DNA of 64,000 nt, taken from the NCBI GenBank assembly GCA_017617125.1, contig JAFZWY010000008.1, positions 153,858 through 217,857 on the forward strand, read 5' to 3'. The notes below the pieces were generated by a model. It was not told the origin of the DNA. It was given only the letters and a program-made list of their open reading frames with translations, and did not search any database. The DNA is from Bacteroidales bacterium. GTDB taxonomy: Bacteria > Bacteroidota > Bacteroidia > Bacteroidales > ML635J-15. The translations under genes were made by a program, and so were the position numbers. Shown in pieces: positions 32,613-44,491 of the stretch; the first letter of the stretch is position 1, and the number at the start of each line of letters is the position of its first letter.

Positions 32613-34457
32613 ATGACAATGGAAAACAATAAGGTTCGCATAATTCCAATAGAGGACTTTTTTCGCAATTCGGAAAAGTCGTCGTTTGACATTTCGCCCG
32701 ATGGCAAGCACATTTCGTATATGGCTCCATACAAGTCGAGAATGAACATTTTTGTAAGTGGCATCGACCTAGGTGAACCCAAGCAAATTACTTTCGAGGA
32801 GGAGCGTGATATTGCTGGTTACATGTGGGCCAACAACAATAGAATCCTTTTTATGAAGGACGATGGTGGCGACGAGAATTTCCAGCTATATGGCGTTGAT
32901 GCCGATGGTACCGATATGCGTCCATATACCAAAATGAAAGGTGTGCGCACCCATATTCTTGACGATCTCGAGGAAATCGACGATGAAATTCTAATCGAGA
33001 CCAATCAGCGCAATCCTGAGATTTTCGACCCGTACCGACTGAACCTTAAAACCGGCGAAATGACCATGCTTGCCGAAAATCCAGGCAACATCCAAGCTTG
33101 GATGACCGACCACGACGGCAAACTGCGAATAGCCTATTCGATAGTTGATGGTGTGGACCAGGAGATGCTCTACCGCGATACCGAGGACGAGGATTTCCGT
33201 CCTGTGATCCGCACTTCGTTCAAGGAAGATGTGTCGGCAATTGTTTTTACCGCCGACAACAAGAATGTGTATGCCATCACCAATCTCGGGCGCGACAAGT
33301 CGGCTCTGGTGCTCATGAATCCTGCTACAGCCGAGGAACTTGAGGAGATTTTTACAAACGACCGCTACGACATTTCTGGTGTAGGATGGTCGAACCTTCA
33401 TAAAAAACTTACTTCTGTTTCGTTTGCCGGACATAAGGATACTGTGCGTCATTTCTTTGACGCTGAGGCTGAGCGCATCAACCAGAGGCTGACAGAAGCA
33501 TTCCCGAACCACAAGTTCGGTACAGCAGCCACCAATAAGGCCGAGGATATGAGAATAATCTATGTCGGCAACGACCGCACACGTGGCGCATATTACCTCT
33601 ACGATGTCAATGCCGACAAGATTAGCAAGATTGCCGACCTTTCTCCGTGGCTGAAAGAGGAGGAATTGTCGTCGATGATTCCAGTGGTTTATACTTCGCG
33701 CGACGGCTTGCAAATCGAGGCTTACCTTACTTTGCCGAATGGCTATACGCTCGAAACTGCGCGAAATCTGCCTACTGTTGTAATTCCTCACGGTGGTCCG
33801 TGGGCACGCGACTATTGGGGCTACGATTCGGAGGTGCAGTTCCTTGCAAATAGGGGGTATGCTGTATTTCAGATGAATTTCCGCGGCTCTACAGGGTTTG
33901 GTCGCAAGTTCAAGGAATTGTCGTACAAGCAGTGGGGACAGACAATGCAGGATGACATTACCGATGGCGTTATGTGGCTGATTGAAAATGGATATGCCGA
34001 CCCGAAGCGAATTGCTATTTACGGCGGAAGCTATGGTGGTTATGCCACCTTGCAGGCATTGGTTAAGACTCCTGAACTTTTTGCTTGCGGTGTTGATTAT
34101 GTAGGCGTTTCTAACTTGTTTACCTTCTTGAACACTATTCCGCCGTACTGGAAGCCAATGTTGGAGATGATGTACGAGCAGGTGGGTAATCCCGAGACCG
34201 ACAAAGAGATGCTTGCCGCCAATTCGCCAGCTTTGAATGCCGATAGGATTGTACGTCCGTTATTTATTGCGCAGGGAGCCAATGATCCGCGTGTCAACAA
34301 GGCTGAATCCGACCAGATGGTAGAGGCTTTGCGCAAGCGTGGCGTGGAGGTCGATTATATGGTTAAGGACAACGAAGGCCATGGTTTCCACAACGAGGAA
34401 AACAGGTTCGAGTTTTATCATGCGATGGAGAGATTTTTGAAGAAATATTTGGAATAA
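32613..34457 (+). CDS. S9 family (prolyl oligopeptidase-type) peptidase
   Basis: HGGPW, GGSYGGY (Ser), NDPRV (Asp) and EGHGF (His) catalytic motifs. Confidence 0.93.
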   Translation: MTMENNKVRIIPIEDFFRNSEKSSFDISPDGKHISYMAPYKSRMNIFVSGIDLGEPKQITFEEERDIAGYMWANNNRILFMKDDGGDENFQLYGVDADGTDMRPYTKMKGVRTHILDDLEEIDDEILIETNQRNPEIFDPYRLNLKTGEMTMLAENPGNIQAWMTDHDGKLRIAYSIVDGVDQEMLYRDTEDEDFRPVIRTSFKEDVSAIVFTADNKNVYAITNLGRDKSALVLMNPATAEELEEIFTNDRYDISGVGWSNLHKKLTSVSFAGHKDTVRHFFDAEAERINQRLTEAFPNHKFGTAATNKAEDMRIIYVGNDRTRGAYYLYDVNADKISKIADLSPWLKEEELSSMIPVVYTSRDGLQIEAYLTLPNGYTLETARNLPTVVIPHGGPWARDYWGYDSEVQFLANRGYAVFQMNFRGSTGFGRKFKELSYKQWGQTMQDDITDGVMWLIENGYADPKRIAIYGGSYGGYATLQALVKTPELFACGVDYVGVSNLFTFLNTIPPYWKPMLEMMYEQVGNPETDKEMLAANSPALNADRIVRPLFIAQGANDPRVNKAESDQMVEALRKRGVEVDYMVKDNEGHGFHNEENRFEFYHAMERFLKKYLE

Positions 34458-34483
34458 ATGGATAATAGTGTCAATTGATAATG

Positions 34484-34525
34484 AAAAAAAACGGAATGTC
34501 ATTCAGAACTTGATTCCGTTTTTTT
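34484..34525. terminator. Bidirectional terminator with a repeat fragment in its loop
   Basis: AAAAAAAACGGAAT-[GTCATTCAGAACTTG]-ATTCCGTTTTTTT between convergent genes. Confidence 0.75.
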
Positions 34526-34545
34526 GTTGGTGTAATATTATATTT

Positions 34546-35481
34546 TCACCTTTTTTGTTTCCCTGTCTGTTTGCCTTTGTACATTTTTTCCATAGAATCA
34601 ATGGTTTCCTTCATGCGGTTACGTAGTGAAGTCGGTTCCATGATTTCAACCTCGTTGTTCATGGTAAGGAGTTCCTGTATCAATTCGTAGGTTGTTTTTA
34701 TGTCGTATTCGAAGATGGCGTATTTATCGTTTGACTTTGCCAGATTTTCCTTTTGCGAGCTATGTAGCGGAAGCGAGCGAAGGTAGCAGTCGCGGTGGCC
34801 GTATTGTTCGCCTTTGTATGCCTTTAGGACAACGTGCTCGACTTTTGCATTGGTAATGCTTATGCCGATTATGTTTTCGAAAGTTTCGTCGGGGGCGATG
34901 TCGGGGAACTTGTATTTTTTGTCGGTAACTTCGATTTCGTTTATTCTGTCGAGGGCGTAGATGCGGTTGCCGACCTGCGATTTGGCGTAAACATACCAGC
35001 GTTGGCGGAACAGTTTTACGCAGATGGGCTTTATCTCGAAATCGCTTTCGTGTTTTCCGAATCCCTGATACCATATATGTAGCACGGTCAGGTCGCGTAT
35101 TGCCTCGATGATAGTTGTCAGGAACTTTTGTCCCGACGGGATATTTTCGAGCAGGATACGTTTTTTCAGTTGCTGGCTATCGCATACGAAGTTGTGCAGC
35201 GACATTGAGTTTAGCAGCCAGTTTTTTGTAGAGTCGGACTTGCTGTCGTCGTAGGTGATGAAGTAGTTGTATTCACCGCATCCCTCGCATTCTATGTCGA
35301 TGCCGAAAATGTCGGCAATGTCGTTGATGTGTCGCAGGAAAGTTCGTTTGCTAAGTTCCAAACCACCGTCGCGTTCGCTGCGTTGCCAGGCTTTGTTTAT
35401 TTCCTTGAACGGAACACTGCCTTTTCTGCGTATGAAGTCAATTAGCCATACATAATTGGAAATCAATGATTTTGTATCCAT
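34546..35481 (-). CDS. WYL-domain transcriptional regulator (wHTH-WYL-WCX)
   Basis: N-terminal HTH LSKRTFLRHINDIADIFGIDIEC; WYL core KLFRQRWYV...RIYALDRI; C-terminal LRSLPLHSSQ...EPTSLR; start placed at ATG 35481 because the ORF-track start overlaps the promoter. Confidence 0.92.
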   Translation of the reverse strand: MDTKSLISNYVWLIDFIRRKGSVPFKEINKAWQRSERDGGLELSKRTFLRHINDIADIFGIDIECEGCGEYNYFITYDDSKSDSTKNWLLNSMSLHNFVCDSQQLKKRILLENIPSGQKFLTTIIEAIRDLTVLHIWYQGFGKHESDFEIKPICVKLFRQRWYVYAKSQVGNRIYALDRINEIEVTDKKYKFPDIAPDETFENIIGISITNAKVEHVVLKAYKGEQYGHRDCYLRSLPLHSSQKENLAKSNDKYAIFEYDIKTTYELIQELLTMNNEVEIMEPTSLRNRMKETIDSMEKMYKGKQTGKQKR

Positions 35482-35510
35482 GTTGCGTTTGTCTTTTTTG
35501 TTTGTTTCTG

Positions 35511-35547
35511 CAAAACTACAAAAAAGATACGACAAAAAATGGCGGAT
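35511..35547 (-). promoter_or_regulatory. WYL box + -7 box upstream of the WYL gene
   Basis: ATACGAC-AAAAAAT-GGCGGAT (35527-35547), 8 bp from TAGTTTTG (35511-35518, minus strand). Confidence 0.75.
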
Positions 35548-35571
35548 GATGGAAATAGTTTGCAAATGTCA

Positions 35572-35622
35572 TTACACATTTTATGAACCATTTTGGAGTG
35601 CAATTTACACATTTTATGAAGA
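35572..35622. repeat. Direct repeat (2 x TTACACATTTTATGAA, 33-bp period) just past the ATPase stop codon
   Basis: 47/51 identical to 37086-37136 by manual alignment. Confidence 0.92.
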
Positions 35623-35629
35623 CTTCGCC

Positions 35630-36961
35630 CTATCCATTATGCACCTCTATCCATCTCTTTAGCAGGAATGCCGTAAAATACGGGAAGGTGTAGAACTTTC
35701 CGTTGAAACCTACATTTTTGTTGCAAAGTTTTATTCCGTACTTTATGTCTGGGTACGAGTCGCTCTTTATCAGATTGTTGAGCGATACGGTAGCAGCATC
35801 CTTGGCTTTCACTTCGACAGGGACAAGACTGTTGGTGTCGCGGACGAAGAAATCCATTTCGAGCTGGGCATTTTCCTTCTTATAGTAATAAGTTGGAAGT
35901 CCCGATTTTACAAATGCTTCTGCAACAACATTCTCGTAAATTGCCCCCTTGTATATGCCAAGGTTTTTGTTTTGGCGCAGGTCGGCAAGCGAATATTCGT
36001 CGAGGCTTGCCATAAGAAGACCGTTGTCGTGGAAATAAATCTTGTACTTTGCTTCGTCGTAGTTGCCACGCAATGGCAATTCGGGGAACGACAGGCAATA
36101 GCAGATGTTGATTATGCCCGCATCGTTGAGCCAGTCAACGCAACCGATGTATTCGCGGCTTCGGGCGTGTGCGGCAACCTTGGTGACTTGGAATTTCTTG
36201 TTTTCCTTTGCCAGAAAGACAGGAATGTTGCGATACACATTCTTTATTTTTGCCTTGTCAATTCCTCGGGCATATTTGGTGATGTCGTTTTCGTAGTCGA
36301 GAAGAAGTTGCCTTTGCATTGCAAGCGTATCGCTATAGTTGCCAGAATTTATGAAATTGCTTACTATTGCAGGCATTCCGCCTACTGTTATGTATTCGAG
36401 AAACTTTTCGCGGAGCACATCCATTTCAAGTTGCGAAAACGGCGTGACTTCCACAAGATGCTGGAAAATGTTCTCTATGAGTTCGGGCGTATAACCTTTT
36501 GCCCACAGAAATTCCTCAAAATCGAGAGAATACATGGTAATGTCGGTTTTGTAGCCAACGCTTACCGAGGTTATTTCCTTGTAGTTGAGTCCCATCATCG
36601 AGCCGGAGCAAATCACATCGTACCGTCCGTCCTGCTTGAAGAACTTGAGACTAGTAGTGCAGTCGGGGTATTCCTGTACCTCGTCGAAGAAAATCAATGT
36701 ATCGTTTTCTATGAATTTGAAGTTAGGGTTTATCAGACTAATCTGCAATACGATTTCACTGGCACCGAATCCGTTTGCAAATATTTGCTTGTATTCGGGA
36801 TTAGTTACGAAGTTAATCTCAACGAACGACTTGTAGGTTTTTCCGAACTGCCGTATCGAGTATGTTTTCCCCACTTGCCTTGCACCGCGCACAATCAACG
36901 GCATTCGGTTGGGATTGTTTTTCCAGTTGAGCAGATATTTGTCTATTTTGCGTTCCATCAT
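35630..36961 (-). CDS. ATP-binding protein, AAA_14 + DUF4143-type (C-terminal PD-(D/E)XK-like)
   Basis: GARQVGKT, FFDEVQ, ICSGS, GGMP, KIYFHDNGLL, GAIYEN and EMDFF...PVEVKA motifs. Confidence 0.88.
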   Translation of the reverse strand: MMERKIDKYLLNWKNNPNRMPLIVRGARQVGKTYSIRQFGKTYKSFVEINFVTNPEYKQIFANGFGASEIVLQISLINPNFKFIENDTLIFFDEVQEYPDCTTSLKFFKQDGRYDVICSGSMMGLNYKEITSVSVGYKTDITMYSLDFEEFLWAKGYTPELIENIFQHLVEVTPFSQLEMDVLREKFLEYITVGGMPAIVSNFINSGNYSDTLAMQRQLLLDYENDITKYARGIDKAKIKNVYRNIPVFLAKENKKFQVTKVAAHARSREYIGCVDWLNDAGIINICYCLSFPELPLRGNYDEAKYKIYFHDNGLLMASLDEYSLADLRQNKNLGIYKGAIYENVVAEAFVKSGLPTYYYKKENAQLEMDFFVRDTNSLVPVEVKAKDAATVSLNNLIKSDSYPDIKYGIKLCNKNVGFNGKFYTFPYFTAFLLKRWIEVHNG

Positions 36962-36965
36962 AGCG

Positions 36966-37136
36966 TTTCACATTTTATGTACATTTTCAACCGCAAATTT
37001 ACACATTTTATGAATATCTGCAAATTTTTCTAAATCATTTATAATCAATATTCCTCACATTTTATGAAGGTTTTTAGTTGTGATTTTACATATTTTATGA
37101 ACCATTTTGGATGGTAATTTACACATTTTATGAAGA
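36966..37136. repeat. Array of five CACATTTTATGAA-type motifs upstream of the ATPase, overlapping its -7 box
   Basis: 16-mers start at 36966, 36999, 37053, 37086 and 37119 (spacings 33, 54, 33, 33); TAAATTTG box at 36994-37001 on the minus strand. Confidence 0.9.
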
Positions 37137-37146
37137 GGAGAGAATA

Positions 37147-37175
37147 AAAATCCCCGCTGGGAGGGGCGGGGAAAA
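37147..37175 (-). terminator. Probable intrinsic terminator
   Basis: CCCCGC-TGGGAGGG-GCGGGG hairpin with a T-run on the minus strand, downstream of the 37188 gene. Confidence 0.65.
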
Positions 37176-37187
37176 GTGAAAATTAAT

Positions 37188-38327
37188 TTATTGCTTCTTT
37201 GTTTCTTCGATTATCTTTTTCCCTAGTTCAATAATTTTGCTTTCAGCAAGTTTTTCCTGTATAACCAATGGAAGTTTTGTTAAACTTTGACTATCAATAT
37301 CAATTTTCAAACTTGCATAATGTCTCCAAATATTACCATGTTTTTCCGATTCTTTTAACATTGGAAACTCATTGTTTAGTATGGCTCTAAAATGATCATG
37401 CTTGTTCTCTACACTACTTTTGACTTTATTTTGAATTTCAAAAACAACTAATATATGGGGGCTCGAATCATTTCCTGGCCTTAGTATTCGTTTATAGAAA
37501 CAGGTCAACATAACATCTTTATTACTTTTGAATATATACTTAACATACTCTTCATTCTCTCCTGTTTTTTCTTTTTTGAGTTCTAATTTTTGGCTATCTA
37601 TATAATTTTTCAATACAGAGTCTTTTTTCAATGTCATAATGTCTGTAATGTATTCCTTAATAACTCTATATACATCATGAACTTTAGTAATCTTCTCTCT
37701 ATTCCCAAAAAAGAAATCGGTTTCGTTTTTACCAATCATATTTGTGTGATTTTTAACGTTTTTATAAAATTCTTGCAATAAATATATGTGATAAGGTTTC
37801 GCTTCTGGCAGATACTCATGGATATTTTTCATAATCTCATTAAGAAGTTCTAAATGCGTAATACTTTGATATCTGTCAAGATTATATTTTGACAGACCTA
37901 ACACTATTACTTCAACATTCTCATAGCCTTTTGCTTCAACACTTTCTTTATACAATTTTAAATCATTATTTAAAGTATGGTACACCTTGTTTTCTATAAC
38001 AATAGCATTACTTTTCTTTTTGTCAGTGAGTAAAATATCAATTCTTTTTTTGTCTTTTACGACATATTCTCGGTCTATTTTAAATTCTTCAAGGAAACCT
38101 TGCTCAAGTTTTGCTGTTTTTTCTAAACTTCGTATGAACAAGTCTTTCATATTGTGTTCTTCTTTGACATTAAAAAAGAAACTATATATGTCAGACCACA
38201 TATTCTCATGGTGCGTAACTCCAGTAATATCCATCAATGAACGTTGCCAACCTTTGTGTTTCGGAATATCGTCAAGTTTTAGTTTATCCAACCATTCTTG
38301 ACATTCTTTTATCTCTGTATCTGTCAT
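37188..38327 (-). CDS. PD-(D/E)XK nuclease family protein (PDDEXK_4-like)
   Basis: HENMWSD, REYVV...RIDILL...IVIENKV motif; AT-rich; start placed at ATG 38327 downstream of TATATTTG. Confidence 0.82.
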   Translation of the reverse strand: MTDTEIKECQEWLDKLKLDDIPKHKGWQRSLMDITGVTHHENMWSDIYSFFFNVKEEHNMKDLFIRSLEKTAKLEQGFLEEFKIDREYVVKDKKRIDILLTDKKKSNAIVIENKVYHTLNNDLKLYKESVEAKGYENVEVIVLGLSKYNLDRYQSITHLELLNEIMKNIHEYLPEAKPYHIYLLQEFYKNVKNHTNMIGKNETDFFFGNREKITKVHDVYRVIKEYITDIMTLKKDSVLKNYIDSQKLELKKEKTGENEEYVKYIFKSNKDVMLTCFYKRILRPGNDSSPHILVVFEIQNKVKSSVENKHDHFRAILNNEFPMLKESEKHGNIWRHYASLKIDIDSQSLTKLPLVIQEKLAESKIIELGKKIIEETKKQ

Positions 38328-38414
38328 AATATAATCAACATTTATTGTGAGTTGCAAATATAATCATTTTGCCCAATTATCCAACATCTTATTGCAAATT
38401 ATAACCGCTTTCGC

Positions 38415-38738
38415 TCATTTTTTACATTCCATTCTAACTTCAAAAAGATCTGGATTTATCATGACCAATTCTCCGATGTTGTTTGGCAAAGCCGACAAAA
38501 ATTTGCCTGATTCCGAAAACATCATGTATTCATTACCAATATGTAATACTACAAATCCTTCTCCGAAACTGCAACCCTTGTAGGAATCTTCCGTCACTTT
38601 TTGTGCGTCTAAAAATACCGATTTCTTTGGTTTGTCGGTATATGTTATACTCATGTAGGGCAAACTTACTGTTTGTGGTTGGTTCATGGAGAAATCCTCC
38701 AACCGAGTGAACGATACTTTAGCTTTCTTAATTGTCAT
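38415..38738 (-). CDS. Hypothetical protein (107 aa)
   Basis: ATG ORF directly downstream of a WYL box + TATGTTTG promoter. Confidence 0.6.
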   Translation of the reverse strand: MTIKKAKVSFTRLEDFSMNQPQTVSLPYMSITYTDKPKKSVFLDAQKVTEDSYKGCSFGEGFVVLHIGNEYMMFSESGKFLSALPNNIGELVMINPDLFEVRMECKK

Positions 38739-38764
38739 AGTTCTATCGCTTTAGTTTTATTGCG

Positions 38765-38801
38765 CAAACATAGAATAATCATACGCCAAAATGTGTCGTA
38801 T
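38765..38801 (-). promoter_or_regulatory. WYL box + -7 box
   Basis: ATACGCC-AAAATGT-GTCGTAT (38781-38801), 8 bp from TATGTTTG (38765-38772). Confidence 0.8.
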
Positions 38802-38857
38802 GATTATTCTTTTGAAAATTATTTGCTGGTTATTGAAATGCTCGTCCATCAAAAGTC

Positions 38858-39535
38858 TTACTTGTAATGAATTTTATAATCCATTTTAACATTTACTTCG
38901 ATATGGAAATCTCTAACATATATGAAGTCTGACAATGCAAACATAGTATGTTCAAACAAATCATGGAAAGGCATAATTAGGTGTAAATCCTTTGTCAAAT
39001 TAGTGTCAAGCCCTTCGTTCCAATTTGGTGTTTTTGTTGATATCCCGATGTAATTGTCAAAAGTTTCTTTTTCTATATTATCCAAATAAAGGCTAGGGTA
39101 TATTCCATAACTATATTCTTGATGTAGGTCATTGTCGGTTAGTGCCTCCCATAAAGTTGATTGGCTATACGCCACTTTGCTTTTTTCTCCAGATAACGGA
39201 TGTTTTTGGGGATAATTAGTATCAAACCATAGACTAGCAACAATATCACGATGTTCATAGTTGATTTTCTTGTGAATGTCGGAAACTAGTTCCCACATGT
39301 TAAGAAAAGCAGCTTTCAAAGCGTCATTAAACGATACAATATCTGACAATAATTCGTTTTCATGTTTCATCAATTCGCCATTGATAATTTGCTTGCGCCG
39401 ATTCATCGAATAATCAAGCACACAGCGCATTCGTTTAGGCTCAATATTGCCGGTGTACTTTTTTTCATACATATCGCAAATCCATTTTTCAAGTCCCTGT
39501 ATTTCTGTAGTTGTCAAAATCTTAACTATTTCCAT
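38858..39535 (-). CDS. Hypothetical protein (~225 aa)
   Basis: Long AT-rich ORF; start placed at ATG 39535, downstream of the promoter/box at 39565-39601. Confidence 0.72.
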   Translation of the reverse strand: MEIVKILTTTEIQGLEKWICDMYEKKYTGNIEPKRMRCVLDYSMNRRKQIINGELMKHENELLSDIVSFNDALKAAFLNMWELVSDIHKKINYEHRDIVASLWFDTNYPQKHPLSGEKSKVAYSQSTLWEALTDNDLHQEYSYGIYPSLYLDNIEKETFDNYIGISTKTPNWNEGLDTNLTKDLHLIMPFHDLFEHTMFALSDFIYVRDFHIEVNVKMDYKIHYK

Positions 39536-39564
39536 TTCGTTATGTAGTTTTACGTTATAGACAA

Positions 39565-39601
39565 CAAAGGAATATGCTATGTCCGCCAAATCTTGTCACA
39601 C
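39565..39601 (-). promoter_or_regulatory. Degenerate WYL box + -7-like box
   Basis: GTCCGCC-AAATCTT-GTCACAC (39581-39601), 8 bp from TTCCTTTG (39565-39572). Confidence 0.6.
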
Positions 39602-39628
39602 CTTACTTTTTTTCATCAAAAAGGTACA

Positions 39629-39656
39629 AAAAAGGCGCACAACAATGCACGCCTTA
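39629..39656 (-). terminator. Probable intrinsic terminator
   Basis: AAGGCG...CGCCTT stem followed by a T-run on the minus strand, after the 74-aa gene. Confidence 0.55.
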
Positions 39657-39680
39657 ATCAAAATCTGGAAGTTTCAGGAA

Positions 39681-39905
39681 TCAGTTGAGTTTTTCTACCA
39701 CGAAGAGGCTAGCGTTGCCGAGGGCATTAGCCTTCTTTAAATCAACTCCGTACTTTGTCATGAAAGCCTTTGCAATTTCTTCCTTTGCCTTTGGGTTGCT
39801 GAACGGAGCAACTGTCGGTGATAAAACTTCTACTGACAATCCCTTCTCAATGTGCACGCCGTTTACATTGCTCTCGTGCTTGGTTGTAATTCTTAATAAA
39901 GCCAT
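39681..39905 (-). CDS. Small Bacteroidota protein (DUF6140-like, 74 aa)
   Basis: MALLRITTK...NGVHIEKGLSVEV...AFMTKYGVDLKKAN; family recalled from memory, not searched. Confidence 0.7.
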   Translation of the reverse strand: MALLRITTKHESNVNGVHIEKGLSVEVLSPTVAPFSNPKAKEEIAKAFMTKYGVDLKKANALGNASLFVVEKLN

Positions 39906-39921
39906 AACTTAAACAATAACA

Positions 39922-39998
39922 GGACTTCTATTTTAAACATTATTGCGCTGCATTCTCCTTTTTTGCCGAAGTCCATTTAAACAGAATCAGAGAAAAAC
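39922..39998 (-). repeat. Conserved leader element copy A (GGACTTC-N39-GAAGTCC)
   Basis: Shares GACTTCTA and TGCCGAAGTCCnTTTAAACAGAnTCnGAGAAAA with 42934-43007. Confidence 0.75.
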
Positions 39999-40014
39999 AG
40001 CCCAGAATTCGGAG

Positions 40015-40051
40015 CAAACATAGAATATACGTATGCCAAAACATGTCGTAT
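40015..40051 (-). promoter_or_regulatory. WYL box + -7 box
   Basis: GTATGCC-AAAACAT-GTCGTAT (40031-40051), 8 bp from TATGTTTG (40015-40022). Confidence 0.78.
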
Positions 40052-40054
40052 GAT

Positions 40055-40438
40055 TTAAGTTTTTCCCATTTCTTCCATCACTTTCTTCTTCATTTCCTCC
40101 ATCCTTGCAAGTCGCTCGTTTGTGCGGTCGTTCTGTTTTTGGTGTGTTGGGTCGAAATGGTCGAGAAGGTCGTAGAACTCACGACGGTGGTTGGGGTAGA
40201 TGATGTGGCACAATTCGTGGAAAATCACATGTTGCTGAAACTTCGATGGCATCTTCGCCAGCGCCTTGCTTAGACTAATTTTTGCAGGAGTGCAACCATA
40301 ACAAAGCCCCCAAGTTTTCTTGTTCTTGCCAATGCGCATTATTGGGTGCGGTATATGAGGAAATTCCGCCGAAAACTTATTCCAGCAATCCTCGAAAACA
40401 GGACTAAGTATTTGATATTCCGTTTTGTTTGCTTTCAT
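40055..40438 (-). CDS. YgjP/DUF45-like zinc metallopeptidase domain protein
   Basis: KTWGLC, VIFHELCHIIYPNHRREFY (HExxH...NH...F); ATGA overlap with the upstream gene. Confidence 0.78.
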   Translation of the reverse strand: MKANKTEYQILSPVFEDCWNKFSAEFPHIPHPIMRIGKNKKTWGLCYGCTPAKISLSKALAKMPSKFQQHVIFHELCHIIYPNHRREFYDLLDHFDPTHQKQNDRTNERLARMEEMKKKVMEEMGKT

Positions 40439-41469
40439 CGCTCCGACTCCCTTTCCCATCTTATGTATTTTTGCTCGTTTGTTATCCGAAATGCATTGTC
40501 GATATTGTTTACAGCTTTTACAGCCTCGGCAAGCATATCTAGTCGCTTGTTGACTACCTCTATTGAACGGTAAGGAAGCGACAACTTAAACATTCTTGCC
40601 TTTTCGAGCTTGATATAGAGCGTAATCGACTGATTGTTTGGCGTGATGTTGTATTCGTAGCCGAGCTGTTTCATCTTTTGTTTTATTAGTGTCTTGACGC
40701 CCATTTCCTTTATCTCATGCGACTTTTTCAGTTTTTCGTACTCGTATTCCCATTGCTCGCACTCATCAATCCAAGCTGGCATAAGATTGTCAATCCTCTC
40801 TAGAAACCTCATATCAATTTCCACTTCGCGAAAACTATTACAGCAATCATTACGCGCATTGATTTTAATCATAATATCCCAGTGGTTGTTTTTTTCTACA
40901 CTAATGTTTTTTAATGATGCGTTTGCTTCTGGGAATTGTTTGTTGAAACTACTCCAGACTAAATTCTTTTTTTCGCGACACCCCATAAGTTGCACATTTA
41001 GTCTATTTGACAATATACGACCAATACTGGTACCGTTTAACACAGACTCGCGTTCTTCTTTCCTGATTTCATTTTCGTATAGAGCAGTCTGCCGAGCCAT
41101 CATATCGGCAAATTCCTTTTCCCATTCTGGCATCAGGCGGTTGGTTTCCTTCATAAATTCCACAATATTGGGGATGTCACTTATATAGAACCAGCCCTTA
41201 TCTTTTGCGCCTATGTACTTTCGTCGTCCTGAGTTGCCAATCCTAAAATCGACATTCTTCATTTCTATTAAAAAGTCTGAATATATTGTTGCTTCAGGGA
41301 AGTATTTCTTTATCGTATCTATTAGATTTTTGTTCTTAACTTCCATTTTTGGAAGGCTCGAATCATTTCCTTGCCGACCAAATAACTCCTTGGCCTTTTC
41401 CCAGTAAAACTCTCTGCGAATTTTATCTGGTTGATACACAACATTATTCACAAAATCCTTAACGTCCAT
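40435..41469 (-). CDS. Hypothetical protein with internal two-fold repeat
   Basis: Long ORF; FPEA...LMPEW and FPEA...LMPAW duplication; start placed at ATG 41469. Confidence 0.72.
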   Translation of the reverse strand: MDVKDFVNNVVYQPDKIRREFYWEKAKELFGRQGNDSSLPKMEVKNKNLIDTIKKYFPEATIYSDFLIEMKNVDFRIGNSGRRKYIGAKDKGWFYISDIPNIVEFMKETNRLMPEWEKEFADMMARQTALYENEIRKEERESVLNGTSIGRILSNRLNVQLMGCREKKNLVWSSFNKQFPEANASLKNISVEKNNHWDIMIKINARNDCCNSFREVEIDMRFLERIDNLMPAWIDECEQWEYEYEKLKKSHEIKEMGVKTLIKQKMKQLGYEYNITPNNQSITLYIKLEKARMFKLSLPYRSIEVVNKRLDMLAEAVKAVNNIDNAFRITNEQKYIRWERESER

Positions 41470-41484
41470 ATCTTTTTTTGTGGG

Positions 41485-41521
41485 CAAAGAAAAAGAAAGC
41501 CTACGCCAAAATCGGGCGTAG
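41485..41521 (-). promoter_or_regulatory. WYL box + -7-like box
   Basis: Perfect palindrome CTACGCC-AAAATCG-GGCGTAG (41501-41521), 8 bp from TTTCTTTG (41485-41492). Confidence 0.75.
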
Positions 41522-41550
41522 GCTGGGAAAATATTAATCTTTTTATACCG

Positions 41551-42918
41551 TCATTTTTTACAACAAGCGTCAATGATTTTTTGATACTCTTTCAACTTTT
41601 CAATAACCTCGTCAATATTGACAATGCCAGTACCAAACAAATTTTCTGGTTTAACAATGGCAATTGTCATATAACAACCAGCACCAAATTTTTGGGGCTT
41701 TATAATCTCTGGATGTCCCATAAGTTCTGCTGTAGAAATAAGATTATTATACCATTTCCACCTGAAGTCGGAACGTTCATCAACATTACAAGATATTTTA
41801 AAACACAATTTTTGCTTTTCAAATTGAAGATACATTTCCCCATTATCGATCTCAGTAAAATGCCACCATGCTCCCAGAAAGCCTCCATTAGGATTAGACA
41901 CATATCCCCAACTGTTTAACCCTAGACGTAGATCCAAATCCATGTAAAAGCCTTGCCAAGCATCCCAATCCCAATTTTCCACGGACTGATTTCTATAACT
42001 CTGAGTTTCTTCTTCTATACATTTAAGATTTGTTAGGTAACTTGAAATGATTGTATTATTACCATGATACATTTTAAGACAATTGATTATATCTACTCTT
42101 GACACTGTCTTGTAGCCAATCTGTATTATTCCTTGTAATACAGATAACGGTTCATTACCAGTTTTTACATATGCATAATACAATTTATTTCTTTTCCCTT
42201 CATACTCTTTTTCAACAATTTTCTTGTATCTTTCAAGCTGATTGTCGTGAATTGAAGAATTTGTTTTATCCTCAATAACAAGGAATGTATCATCATTGAT
42301 TTCAACCCATATATCAATATTATTCCATTGTCGTCCAACGTTTATTGAGCTTATGGCATAATCTTTTTCTCCCAATAACATTCTGACAAAATTTTGTGCG
42401 ACAGAAAACATTTCCTCATCTTTGTCTTTATACTTTGGATCTGCCCATTTGATAATCCATGCAAATACAGCATCCTGACTTAGTTCCGATGTTGCAAAAT
42501 CAAAAATATTTGGAATGTCATCAGATGCTTTTTGTATGTTTCCTTTTGTTAACAAGCGTCTAAGTTCATTAAGCCTAGGTTCAAACATTTCCATATTTTC
42601 ATTCAAAAAATCTCTTAAACCATCTGTGCTTTCTGAATCCTGAATAAATTCATTCAATTTACTTTCTTTGCCGTTTATTGTTGCTATTATTAAGGTTGCC
42701 AAATCTAATACTCGCCAAATAGGCATTTCTTCGCTTTGTCTAGACCAGCGGTCTCCACTATGTCGCCAGATTTTAGCAGAATAATCTTCTTCATTCCATG
42801 AGGCATGGCCCAATGACAAAAATTTGGCATCACCTGCATATGCATCGTTTTCTTCGTAATCAACACTAATTATTGGTTTATGTGATAACCACCATGGAGC
42901 AATCTTTTCTTTTTTCAT
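41551..42918 (-). CDS. DUF6530-like N-terminal domain fused to a PD-(D/E)XK (PDDEXK_4-like) nuclease
   Basis: N-terminal HKPI...SAKIWRHSGDRWSRQSEEMPIWRVLDLA; C-terminal PNIFDFATSELSQDA...IDIWVEIN...VIEDKT...QLERY. Confidence 0.75.
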   Translation of the reverse strand: MKKEKIAPWWLSHKPIISVDYEENDAYAGDAKFLSLGHASWNEEDYSAKIWRHSGDRWSRQSEEMPIWRVLDLATLIIATINGKESKLNEFIQDSESTDGLRDFLNENMEMFEPRLNELRRLLTKGNIQKASDDIPNIFDFATSELSQDAVFAWIIKWADPKYKDKDEEMFSVAQNFVRMLLGEKDYAISSINVGRQWNNIDIWVEINDDTFLVIEDKTNSSIHDNQLERYKKIVEKEYEGKRNKLYYAYVKTGNEPLSVLQGIIQIGYKTVSRVDIINCLKMYHGNNTIISSYLTNLKCIEEETQSYRNQSVENWDWDAWQGFYMDLDLRLGLNSWGYVSNPNGGFLGAWWHFTEIDNGEMYLQFEKQKLCFKISCNVDERSDFRWKWYNNLISTAELMGHPEIIKPQKFGAGCYMTIAIVKPENLFGTGIVNIDEVIEKLKEYQKIIDACCKK

Positions 42919-42933
42919 TGTTTTTTCTTTTCA

Positions 42934-43007
42934 GACTTCTAATTTTACATTCCAATCATCATTTTCCCATCCTCTGCCGAAGTCCCTTTAAACAGATTCC
43001 GAGAAAA
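42934..43007 (-). repeat. Conserved leader element copy B (GACTTC-N39-GAAGTC)
   Basis: See copy A at 39922-39998. Confidence 0.75.
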
Positions 43008-43051
43008 CGACCTCACAAATTTACTACAATTTCCTAATCTTCAAAATCGTC

Positions 43052-43393
43052 TCATCTCCTCTTCACCCAAGTTCTACCGCCATTTGTAGAGTAATACAGG
43101 CCTTTGTCGGTGTTGGCGAGAAGTTCTCTGCCGCCGTCCATAAGGTTTTGGAATGTGCCGCACGAAGTGCCCATGTAGCGTAACGACCAGGAACGGCCTG
43201 CGTTACTGCTATAATATATTCCCTTGCTGGTAACAGCTAGAATTTCAGATCCGTAGGGCAGCAGGTCAACAAAAGTACCGCACGAAGTGCCCATGTAACG
43301 TATCGACCAAACACGACCGCTGCTGGTCGAGTATTCAACGCCCTTGGGCGTTATGCGGAGCATTTCGCTCCCTAAGTTTATCATCTGTGGCAT
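43052..43393 (-). CDS. Small Asp-box/BNR-like repeat protein (113 aa)
   Basis: Three YSxxxGRxW repeats; RYMGTSCGTF occurs twice. Confidence 0.8.
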   Translation of the reverse strand: MPQMINLGSEMLRITPKGVEYSTSSGRVWSIRYMGTSCGTFVDLLPYGSEILAVTSKGIYYSSNAGRSWSLRYMGTSCGTFQNLMDGGRELLANTDKGLYYSTNGGRTWVKRR

Positions 43394-43485
43394 AATCGTA
43401 TTTTTTTAGTGCTTCAAAATTACAAATTAATACTATATATTTTTTGGTTGATAGATGTTTTTTTTATAACTGAAAAAATATCGTT

Positions 43486-43531
43486 CTGCGACAGCAAATG
43501 TCGCATGCACATACGCCAAAACTTGTCGTAG
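43486..43531 (-). promoter_or_regulatory. Tandem WYL boxes
   Basis: CTGCGAC-AGCAAAT-GTCGCAT (43486-43506) and ATACGCC-AAAACTT-GTCGTAG (43511-43531). Confidence 0.75.
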
Positions 43532-43648
43532 GTTTGAAAAATCACAACTTTTTTCTTTATATCTTCGTTTGCAAAGTTTTAACGAAATATTATGGACGAT
43601 GTGGCACGCTTTGTGATATATTTGTTTTCGCAAATTTCTTAAAAACAG

Positions 43649-44491
43649 ATGACTATGAAAAAGTTGGTTTTGTTTGCTGTTATGACCGTTGCGGTTATTT
43701 CTGCTATGGGTGCAAATGTAGAGAGTTTTGCTCCTCAAAAGAATTTGATGAATGTTGCTGTCGCCAACGATGACGGCGATGTTGACTTGTACCTCGATTG
43801 TTTCGAGAATGCCGTGAAAGCCAAGGATATGGAGCTGGCGGCGAAAATCGCTAATGTCCTTTATGGTATGGAGATGAATGCTGAGCAGTTGAAGCGTTTT
43901 ACTGCTATCGAAAATAAGATTTCGAAGAAAGATTACCGTGTGTATCGCGACAATTTGAGGTATTTTGCTTCAAAATCATCGCCTGCGCAGGATGGTTACT
44001 ACGATTTTTATGTTGAGCCTTATGCCGACGACAACACATACGATGACGATTCGTCGTTTGCCGACGATATTGTCAATGCTTTTTCGTCGTTTTTCAACGA
44101 TTTGGGCATAAATGATGCTGATTCTTCCTATTCGTGGCATTATGAGCGACATGATACAATCGATGGTGGCGGCATGTATGATGTATTTGTCGATGCTTTT
44201 AGCAACTTTTTGTATGGCGGTGATGGTTCCGAAGTGCAGAGCAAGTCGGCTGTTGACGAGTCGGAAATGGACGCTTTGCTCGACGACTACGAGAATTATG
44301 TCAATTTGGCAGTAGGGGCTTTGCGCAAAGTGATGCGTGGCGACGAGGCTGCTATGGACGATTTTGAGAAATACAGCCAGGAGGCATCTGCAATATCAGA
44401 CAAGCTGACTAAGGGCGGTGCTAACATGACATCAAGGCAGTTTAAGCGTTACATGCACATTTGGGGCGACATGGTGAATGGTTTGTTCTAA
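43649..44491 (+). CDS. Exported acidic hypothetical protein
   Basis: Signal peptide MKKLVLFAVMTVAVISA; C-terminal MDALLDDYENYV helical domain. Confidence 0.75.
   Translation: MTMKKLVLFAVMTVAVISAMGANVESFAPQKNLMNVAVANDDGDVDLYLDCFENAVKAKDMELAAKIANVLYGMEMNAEQLKRFTAIENKISKKDYRVYRDNLRYFASKSSPAQDGYYDFYVEPYADDNTYDDDSSFADDIVNAFSSFFNDLGINDADSSYSWHYERHDTIDGGGMYDVFVDAFSNFLYGGDGSEVQSKSAVDESEMDALLDDYENYVNLAVGALRKVMRGDEAAMDDFEKYSQEASAISDKLTKGGANMTSRQFKRYMHIWGDMVNGLF

Follow-up and report, generated by a model that had tools for sequence, protein, structure and literature searches.

A putative WYL-activator regulon in a Bacteroidales genome, marked by palindromic boxes in fixed register with Bacteroidota -7 elements

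The 64-kb stretch of DNA from a gut Bacteroidales bacterium analysed here (the window, G000:C31:153858-217857) contains an island in which the gene for a 311-aa protein with a WYL domain is accompanied by seven copies of a 21-bp palindrome (the box). Six of the boxes lie at one and the same distance from a Bacteroidota -7 promoter element, and the same arrangement is found at dispersed loci of the genome, a 2.88-Mb assembly (G000) of 57 contigs with 43.9% G+C and 91% completeness, as well as in relatives that encode the regulator. The pattern of sites makes it very probable that the boxes belong to the neighbouring WYL regulator and together form a regulon. The protein is quite likely to be an activator, and the fuller reading, in which it is a homodimeric activator of the DriD/PafBC kind that responds to single-stranded DNA (ssDNA) and serves several promoters, is on balance probable. 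That the signal is ssDNA arising from damage or phage attack is a prediction with an even chance of being right.

Boxes and -7 elements in the island

The palindromes start at positions 35527, 38781, 39581, 40031, 41501, 43486 and 43511 of the window, and a CAAA begins 16 bp to the left of six of them (35511, 38765, 39565, 40015, 41485 and 43495). These read-outs agree at every position and in every sequence with the initial annotation, which had listed the seven boxes and the six CAAA tetranucleotides and had counted three -7 boxes without the consensus TA; the last are TTCCTTTG (box at 39581), TTTCTTTG (41501) and GACATTTG (43511). On the minus strand the six sites share one layout, namely the 21-bp box, 8 nt and a Bacteroidota -7 box of the form nnnnTTTG. 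The regulator gene, the hybrid promoters and the additional box are the following.

34546-35481, minus strand: WYL regulator gene, 311 aa, with Pfam WYL and WCX matches
35511-35547, minus strand: hybrid promoter of the WYL gene; box 35527-35547 (sense ATCCGCC-ATTTTTT-GTCGTAT), 8 nt, -7 box TAGTTTTG at 35511-35518; in full ATCCGCCATTTTTTGTCGTAT cttttttg TAGTTTTG
38765-38801, minus strand: hybrid promoter of the 107-aa gene; box 38781-38801 with 0 mismatches, 8 nt, TATGTTTG; sense ATACGACACATTTTGGCGTAT gattattc TATGTTTG
39565-39601, minus strand: decayed hybrid promoter of the 225-aa gene; box 39581-39601 (sense GTGTGAC-AAGATTT-GGCGGAC, 3 core mismatches), 8 nt, TTCCTTTG; in full GTGTGACAAGATTTGGCGGAC atagcata TTCCTTTG
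40015-40051, minus strand: hybrid promoter of the DUF6140 gene, with a leader of about 100 nt; box 40031-40051, 8 nt, TATGTTTG; sense ATACGACATGTTTTGGCATAC gtatattc TATGTTTG
41485-41521, minus strand: hybrid promoter of the 344-aa gene; box 41501-41521, 8 nt, TTTCTTTG; sense CTACGCCCGATTTTGGCGTAG gctttctt TTTCTTTG
43495-43531, minus strand: hybrid promoter of the 113-aa gene; box 43511-43531, 8 nt, GACATTTG; sense CTACGACAAGTTTTGGCGTAT gtgcatgc GACATTTG
43486-43506, minus strand: second box (sense ATGCGAC-ATTTGCT-GTCGCAG), overlapping the -7 box and the likely start of the 43511 promoter

In the window, the box pattern ATACGMC-N7-GKCGTAT at up to two mismatches yields five matches, all of them in the island, where 100 dinucleotide shuffles give a mean of 0.45 and none reaches five. 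With three mismatches allowed the signal is weak and not significant (12 matches against 5.93 expected, a number reached by 2 of the 100 shuffles). When the -7 tetranucleotide is included, as CAAA-N13-TACGNC-N7-GNCGTA, seven matches are found at up to two mismatches against 0.38 expected; none of the 100 shuffles reaches seven, and five of the seven are real sites. A scan for sigma-70 promoters was uninformative (36 found, 30 expected), as anticipated in Bacteroidota, and Rfam returned for 34300-43800 one sub-threshold match, to RT-6 (20.9 bits against a gathering threshold of 46.7, E 0.63), which was judged to be due to chance.

Several of the sites have counterparts in relatives. A homologue of the 38781 site occurs in four (G027, G020, G036 and G035) and a 41501-type site in three (G020, G024 and G027), and the decayed 39581 site corresponds in one relative (L152) to a better box with an identical spacer and -7 box. 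The tandem 43486/43511 layout is kept in nine relatives. The second box is retained in relatives as ...TACGACATTTGCTGTCGTAAG. The 41501 box and its flanks (41498-41524, minus strand) also form a hairpin-like 10-bp stem with a T-run behind it, placed immediately past the stop codon of the 455-aa gene, and this element may double as a terminator and an activator site.

The proposed regulon beyond the island

A genome-wide scan with a strict box (TACGNCA-N5-TGNCGTA, at most one mismatch) gives 34 oriented matches, of which seven have a TTTG at one offset; each of the other offsets compared, from 3 to 29, holds at most one. The initial annotation had proposed such a scan of the genome and its relatives, with background frequency and the lack of a positional link to promoters as the outcome that would speak against a regulon, and the link is clearly present. 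The shorter core pattern TACGNC-N7-GNCGTA (10 positions) has eight perfect sites in the genome, three of them in the island. At up to one mismatch it has 148 oriented matches; for seven of these a TTTG stands at the fixed offset, namely five island sites, C6:13312 and C53:45159, and at two mismatches C8:31062 and C14:62554 carry a full TAnnTTTG. The 8-nt spacing holds at all seven promoter sites of the genome.

Behind the four dispersed sites lie genes for a 105-aa protein whose C-terminal tail is hydrophobic (a small membrane protein), a 623-aa subunit of the GyrB/ParE family that reaches neither the GyrB nor the ParE equivalog cut-off, a MoxR-like AAA_5 ATPase together with a DUF2201 (metallopeptidase/VWA-like) protein, and a 190-aa DnaQ-like DEDDh exonuclease. 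Three further boxes (C36:2655, C34:41060 and C48:6533) have no -7 box. The earlier remark that no full copy occurs outside the island thus holds within the window and fails for the genome as a whole, where the sites on C6, C53, C8, C14, C36, C34 and C48 are found; likewise, the notion of an apparent WYL regulon stands as regards co-occurrence and the fixed 8-nt spacing, and its confinement to the island does not, given at least four dispersed sites.

The box at C36:2655-2675 (L004) is perfect, TTACGACATATTTTGTCGTAG, and lies 239 nt upstream of a 739-aa open reading frame (ORF) resembling the alpha subunit of DNA polymerase III, which has PHP, NTPase and finger domains and is short for DnaE; TTCG replaces TTTG at the -7 offset, and G036 and G027 have the site as well. 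The idea of a box at recA was rejected: in G000 none was found upstream of this gene, and recA closely follows another gene.

The regulator protein

The neighbouring WYL gene had been named at the outset as the regulator, and its product indeed contains WYL and WCX domains, with DriD and PafBC as the nearest solved relatives. In Pfam it matches WYL (PF13280; 7.3e-11, 42.3 bits against a cut-off of 21.8) and WCX (PF25583; 1.6e-6, 28.8 bits against 23.9), and no Pfam helix-turn-helix (HTH) family scored. An AlphaFold2 (AF2) model (predicted local distance difference test score, pLDDT, 77; predicted template modelling score, pTM, 0.54) has N-terminal helices at residues 3-20, 25-34 and 45-59 and a beta-hairpin at 61-66/72-78, which fits a winged HTH. 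Helices at 83-92, 95-108 and 118-130 follow, with pLDDT below 50 at 93-100 and 108-115, and may correspond to the three-helix bundle that joins the winged HTH of DriD-type activators to their WYL domain. Taken together, the domain matches and the model identify the protein as a predicted HTH-WYL-WCX transcription factor. It is the single WYL gene at the locus; the only other match in G000 (C24:3871-4413), a 181-aa fragment 37% identical across residues 117-304 and with one internal TAG stop codon, looks like a decayed paralogue.

Searching solved structures with the model by Foldseek places DriD first (8tp8, 4e-12; the full-length alignments to DriD cover 299-343 columns), followed by PafBC (5e-11), CapW (2e-7) and BrxR (4e-6), with the BrxR/CapW matches ranging from 2e-7 to 4e-5. 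A profile of 17 sequences run against the sequences of the Protein Data Bank (PDB) gives PafBC (3e-20), DriD (3e-14), PafB (1e-11) and PafC (6e-8), and ranks BrxR (5e-7) and CapW (3e-6) lower, within a BrxR/CapW range of 5e-7 to 2e-4. With phmmer, DriD chains alone are found in the PDB, at E values of 4e-4 to 2e-3 and over residues 118-293, the WYL-WCX part.

Invariant residues in the 17 homologues are R46, R50, R161-W162-Y163, D178 and R179. R46 and R50 stand at the start of the third, recognition helix (H45-59), before the beta-hairpin. Of the residues by which DriD contacts ssDNA, the alignments pair Y168 with Y138, Y192 with Y163 and R204 with R173, and W206 is replaced by Y175.

Promoter architecture

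Each box is separated from its downstream -7 box by 8 bp and spans roughly -41 to -21, covering the usual place of the -33 element; from this placement it follows that the proximal half-site has the geometry of the PafBC '-26 element', TGkCGT-N10-TA. In the genome at large, a TTG is enriched 18-20 nt upstream of TAnnTTTG, reaching 10.1% at its peak of 19 nt, compared with 2.7% in coding controls (n=634 and 1642). In the regulon promoters the native -33 positions coincide with box bases 7-11 and the 19-nt peak with bases 8-10; the eighth base is A in 59 of 61 sites. These 61 unique sites, for which relatives' loci were chosen by the pattern itself in related genomes, give the logo TACGACAnatTTTGkCGTA, which fits the form CGxC-N7-GxCG with an AT-rich centre that is typical of DriD targets. 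The T-tract in its spacer is oriented to the promoter, with TTTG on the sense strand in 47 sites and the mirror CAAA in 11. The TA of TAnnTTTG is present in 22 of the 61 sites and missing from 39. Where it is present, the sense strand reads TG(G/T)CGT-N10-TA, in line with the TGTCGT/TGGCGT-N10-TA that the initial annotation had given for the best sites.

The TTTG inside the box was considered as an ordinary -33 element and rejected, since it lies 14 nt from the TA where native elements lie 18-20 nt away. In sum, these promoter features favour, as far as the sequences go, an activator that takes over the upstream promoter contact.

Conservation and co-occurrence

Orthologues of the regulator with 71-82% identity are present in 11 of the 36 same-genus genomes drawn. 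In all 11 orthologues with a complete upstream region, the gene is preceded by the box, 8 nt and TAnnTTTG; a twelfth orthologue locus (L014) ends at a contig edge and was left out of this comparison. A pattern scan at up to one mismatch, compared with a backwards control, found 4-15 sites in each of the 11 orthologue genomes, 104 in total against 40 in the control. In contrast, 11 genomes of the genus without an orthologue, all at least 95% complete, hold 9 matches against 15 in the control; nine of them hold none, one (G012) has a single atypical match and the last (G002) is discussed below. The topoisomerase site, upstream of the GyrB/ParE-family gene, is present in G000 and in 11 of 11 orthologue genomes and unmatched in 10 of the 11 genomes without one. 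Other site types recur in the orthologue genomes too: nine have the tandem 43511 type, and several have the 41501, the 38781 or the C6 type.

An order-wide regulon was considered as well and rejected, as one genome each of 119 other families gave pattern matches at the control level and five genomes with a paralogue of 34-42% identity gave 0-1 matches each. Because matches outside the genus stay at the control level, the multi-promoter regulon appears, within the sample of genomes, to be peculiar to this genus.

The promoter layout itself is older, as far as the sequences of distant homologues tell. A scan for these returned 80 loci, whose titles name Prevotella, Bacteroides, Paludibacteraceae and others, and 62 of them had enough upstream DNA. 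In 46 of the 62, the 21-mer ending 8 nt before a -7 box has at least four of seven complementary arm pairs, against 7 of 62 in a control shifted by 4 nt. The half-sites vary among groups (CTCTGCC..GGCGTAC, ACTGCC..GGCAGT, CTGTATC..GATACAG), which points to different specificities on one geometry. Within the genus, a paralogue family of 39% identity (L019, L031-L035) has another conserved 21-mer, ACTGCTTGTTTTTGGCAATG, 8 nt before TACCTTTG; several of these genes hold an in-frame stop.

Proposed mechanism and alternative explanations

In the model proposed here, a dimer of the 311-aa protein would recognise the palindrome TACGACA-N5-TG(G/T)CGTA. Its WYL domain would bind a ligand, most likely ssDNA produced by DNA damage or phage, whereupon the dimer would dock on the box and aid RNA polymerase with the housekeeping sigma factor at promoters that have no -33 element and often a poor -7 box. 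The predicted regulon would comprise the regulator's own gene, five further island units, mostly family-less small proteins and a YgjP-like peptidase, and at least four dispersed units.

A number of observations weigh against this model. The alignment shows no conservation of the DriD contacts S172, R178 and R207. The absent -33 element is weak evidence, because only about 23% of the TAnnTTTG sites of the genome have a TTG at gaps of 18-20 nt. A box over the -33 region could equally serve a repressor. An apparently essential topoisomerase gene under a box is awkward for a strictly damage-induced promoter. Activation at the regulator's own promoter would amount to positive feedback, which DriD is not known to have. 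The site logo and the counts in relatives overstate independence, since the pattern itself served to choose the loci and the genomes are related. Finally, G002 (220 contigs) has eight typical box-plus-(-7) sites, including the topoisomerase site; a regulator orthologue was not found in it even at E <= 1e-3, which makes it an exception to the co-occurrence. In addition, WYL regulators beside defence genes, such as BrxR and CapW, are described as repressors (PMC12392091), and the island has defence-like genes.

This last point leads to a less probable though still serious alternative, in which the protein is a repressor of the BrxR/CapW kind that sits over the -33 region, and with the 43486 box over the -7 box and start, and is released by ssDNA or a phage cue, de-repressing a defence island and a few DNA-metabolism genes. 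Defence-type genes are indeed found here (PDC-S01 and PDC-S26) and in the islands of relatives (GmrSD and McrBC), the second box overlaps a -7 box, autoregulation in the same geometry suits negative feedback, and at several targets the -7 box is of the consensus type (TATGTTTG twice, TAGTTTTG and TATTTTTG). However, DriD and PafBC outrank BrxR and CapW by both profile and fold, the proximal half-site has the exact N10 spacing of PafBC, and the TA of the -7 box is lacking in most of the 61 sites. The invariant spacing at non-homologous promoters and the oriented T-tract also fit a factor that touches the polymerase better than one that occludes it.

It is very improbable that the palindromes are merely structural repeats of a cassette array, that is, recombination sites of a mobile island or intrinsic terminators. 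The island mosaic differs among relatives with a palindrome before each cassette, a contig of another run carries 483 other letters in place of 38309-40067 and ends loosely at 41494, beside a box, and the 41501 stem with its T-run resembles a terminator. Yet the same box precedes conserved chromosomal genes far from the island and the regulator gene itself, its register with the -7 box is constant, its sequence agrees with the DriD site and it is gone from genomes without the regulator; moreover, no integrase or recombinase gene was found among the island ORFs (ORF list and Pfam scan), and only one of the seven boxes is terminator-like. Chance clustering of CG-containing palindromes in an AT-rich island, to which the merely twofold excess at three mismatches (12 against 5.93, 2 of 100 shuffles) might be attributed, is hardly credible in view of the counts at two mismatches (5 against 0.45, and 7 against 0.38 for the composite, 0 of 100 shuffles each) and the conservation of sites across genomes.

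Genes and cassettes of the island

The remaining features of the island, all on the minus strand, are as follows.

35630-36961, minus strand: AAA_14 and DUF4143 ATPase, 443 aa (PADLOC PDC-S01, 2e-152); without a box, island cargo
37151-37172, minus strand (37172-37151): terminator-like hairpin after the 379-aa gene, from a terminator scan
37188-38327, minus strand: PD-(D/E)XK_4 gene, 379 aa (Pfam and PADLOC PDC-S26), with its own TTG-N19-TATATTTG promoter
38415-38738, minus strand: target gene, 107 aa (fam2), kept behind the box in relatives
38858-39535, minus strand: target gene, 225 aa (fam9), without a family match
39632-39655, minus strand (39655-39632): terminator-like hairpin after the DUF6140 gene, from the same scan
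39681-39905, minus strand: DUF6140 target gene, 74 aa (Pfam DUF6140, 1e-17)
40055-40459, minus strand: YgjP-like metallopeptidase gene, 134 aa (Pfam YgjP-like, 2e-19; SprT-like and WLM below cut-offs)
40435-41469, minus strand: target gene, 344 aa (fam0), without a Pfam match
41551-42918, minus strand: DUF6530 and PD-(D/E)XK_4 gene, 455 aa (Pfam, PADLOC PDC-S26), with its own TTTG-N18-TAAATTTG promoter
43052-43393, minus strand: target gene, 113 aa, with three BNR-like repeats (weak BNR match alone)

The promoters of the two PD-(D/E)XK_4 nuclease genes (TTG/TTTG-N18-19-TAnnTTTG) were read by eye. The 379-aa gene appears to be island cargo and is not clearly a member of the regulon, and the 455-aa gene may receive read-through from the 43511 promoter. 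The YgjP-like gene is probably co-operonic with the 344-aa gene, with which it overlaps by 25 nt. For the family-less target proteins NCBIfam and PHROGs gave nothing useful; the 107-aa protein has no match in Pfam, PADLOC, NCBIfam or PHROGs, and a homologue search with the 344-aa protein returned only 12 unnamed or hypothetical Bacteroidales proteins.

The islands of five relatives are mosaics of common cassettes, each behind its own box. These cassettes are the 344-aa family, the YgjP-like gene, the 107/113-aa family, DUF6140, a 170-aa gene with the tandem box and the MoxR/VWA pair. The 344-aa family has several paralogues in these islands (up to four copies), each with a box of its own, and the 113-aa gene is preceded in relatives by the 170-aa gene, which is absent from G000. 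The variable cargo includes two GmrSD genes, McrBC, a 1475-aa HATPase/NOV_C protein, a DnaB_C-like ATPase, a GIY-YIG protein, Nmad2 and a 223-aa N-terminal fragment of FtsZ. A 488-aa target in relatives was labelled 'A1S_2505 family phage non-structural protein' in a protein atlas at 0.87, below the 0.9 level, and is a lead only.

The truncated FtsZ, found in two relatives (L056:806-1477, minus strand; L151:8495-9166, plus strand) and absent from G000, covers the GTPase half (TIGR00065 positions 16-210 of 353) and its gene lies directly behind a 41501-type box; it is a candidate for a damage-induced division inhibitor.

Two repeats were seen besides the box. The 13-mer CACATTTTATGAA has five copies in the 2.88-Mb genome, all around the PDC-S01 ATPase gene, two downstream and three upstream (window positions 35575, 35608, 37002, 37056 and 37122, plus strand), and may serve this gene as a private operator or mark the ends of a cassette that was inserted. 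On the minus strand, the leader of the DUF6140 gene (39906-40014) and that of the 455-aa gene (42919-43030) have in common a stretch of about 45 nt, GTTTTCTC.GA.TCTGTTTAAA.GGACTTCGGCA, without an Rfam match; it could act as a leader element or be left over from the duplication of a cassette.

LexA context and implications

Bacteroidales are dominant among gut bacteria, and LexA is unreported in this order, hence the interest in how DNA damage is sensed there. According to PMC8565304, both non-canonical LexA groups of Bacteroidetes are absent from Bacteroidales, and canonical LexA is likewise unreported. LexA was also not found in G000 (91% complete), where the sole S24 peptidase match is a 145-aa UmuD-like gene beside a 423-aa umuC-like gene for a Y-family polymerase; the idea of a LexA-independent regulon, put forward in the initial annotation, agrees with this. 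The umuD-like/umuC-like pair (C57:3546-6887, L067) begins 11 nt after a 459-aa ORF, which leaves no room for an SOS box before it.

The findings point to an alarm circuit for DNA damage or phage in an order with no known SOS regulator. If the proposed regulon is real, some ten mostly family-less genes per genome would be expected to respond to either. Activation akin to sigma adaptation would extend to a phylum with a different promoter grammar, and the unit would offer a compact inducible promoter for engineering Bacteroidales. A more speculative reading, held only tentatively and rather doubtful as a whole, is that the geometry of WYL activators (half-site, 10 nt, TA) is ancient and independent of the sigma factor, works here with the unusual housekeeping sigma of Bacteroidota and constitutes a portable 'alarm promoter'. 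The TTTG within the box, 14 nt instead of 19 nt from the TA, could then be a displaced -33 element read by sigma only when the dimer is bound, and the 37-bp unit may have been acquired by unrelated cassettes of one genus, such as defence nucleases, the truncated FtsZ, the DnaB-like ATPase and many family-less genes. On this reading an order without LexA would have an alarm regulon of its own for DNA damage and phage.

Comparison with known WYL systems

The known WYL damage activators belong to Actinobacteria, Caulobacteraceae and Moraxellaceae, and no WYL regulon described in Bacteroidota was found in the literature searched. BrxR and CapW, which repress BREX, CBASS and defence islands, share with the present protein the winged HTH-WYL-WCX domain family, defence-type neighbours and autoregulation, and they are farther from it by profile (5e-7 to 2e-4) and fold (2e-7 to 4e-5). 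They control one adjacent operon, unlike the present set of at least ten promoters in fixed register.

DdaA of Moraxellaceae recognises the motif CGWCA-N5-TGWCG and controls damage genes and defence systems in a lineage with an atypical SOS response (PMC12392091). The motif found here, CGACA-N5-TG(G/T)CG, is related, and the present system is set beside DdaA by motif and description. The two differ in phylum and in their targets, which for DdaA are recA, CRISPR-Cas and restriction-modification systems.

For the PafBC of mycobacteria, which acts by sigma adaptation, the motif given in the initial annotation (TGTCGG-N10-TA) corresponds to the published tGTCgg(N10)tA(N3)T; its regulon is given as about 150 genes, including recA and SOS genes, and R46 and R50 of PafB read the GTC triplet (PMC8635444). 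The likeness is close at the promoter, where a proximal half-site TG(G/T)CGT is followed by exactly 10 nt and TA and an upstream element is lacking, and in the protein, with PafBC of A. aurescens as the best sequence-profile match (3e-20) and R46/R50 of PafB likewise reading guanines. PafBC differs in being a heterodimer or fusion of two WYL proteins that uses a single half-site, whereas here there is one gene and a two-armed palindrome.

DriD of Caulobacter crescentus, which activates a damage response independent of SOS, binds ATACGAC(X)7GTCGTAT, again as stated at the outset, and its site overlaps the -35 place at a fixed distance from -10 (PMC13004042 and PMC10853764). The latter restricts its survey of DriD homologues to alpha-proteobacteria and has R37 and R41 read two guanines of each half-site; negative autoregulation of DriD has been suggested (PMC9186387). 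The two systems differ in phylum and sigma factor, with -33/-7 promoters here and -35/-10 promoters there, and in their targets, which here are mostly family-less proteins and defence-like cassettes, with recA lacking a box. The position of Glu40 is Leu or Gln here. The identity in the Foldseek alignment is 17-19% and phmmer reaches the WYL-WCX part alone (E about 4e-4), so the 311-aa protein is not a DriD orthologue. The likeness nevertheless extends from the protein to the promoters: DriD is the top fold match and has two arginines four residues apart in the recognition helix (R46/R50 here being matched to R37/R41 by the sequence pattern K-R-T-x-x-R and helix position, not by residue-level alignment), and the site consensus with its AT-rich centre is the same. 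In both systems the site overlaps the place of the upstream promoter element and keeps a constant distance from the downstream one, the regulator gene itself has a site, and tandem sites occur at one target, bapE in DriD and the 43486/43511 pair here.

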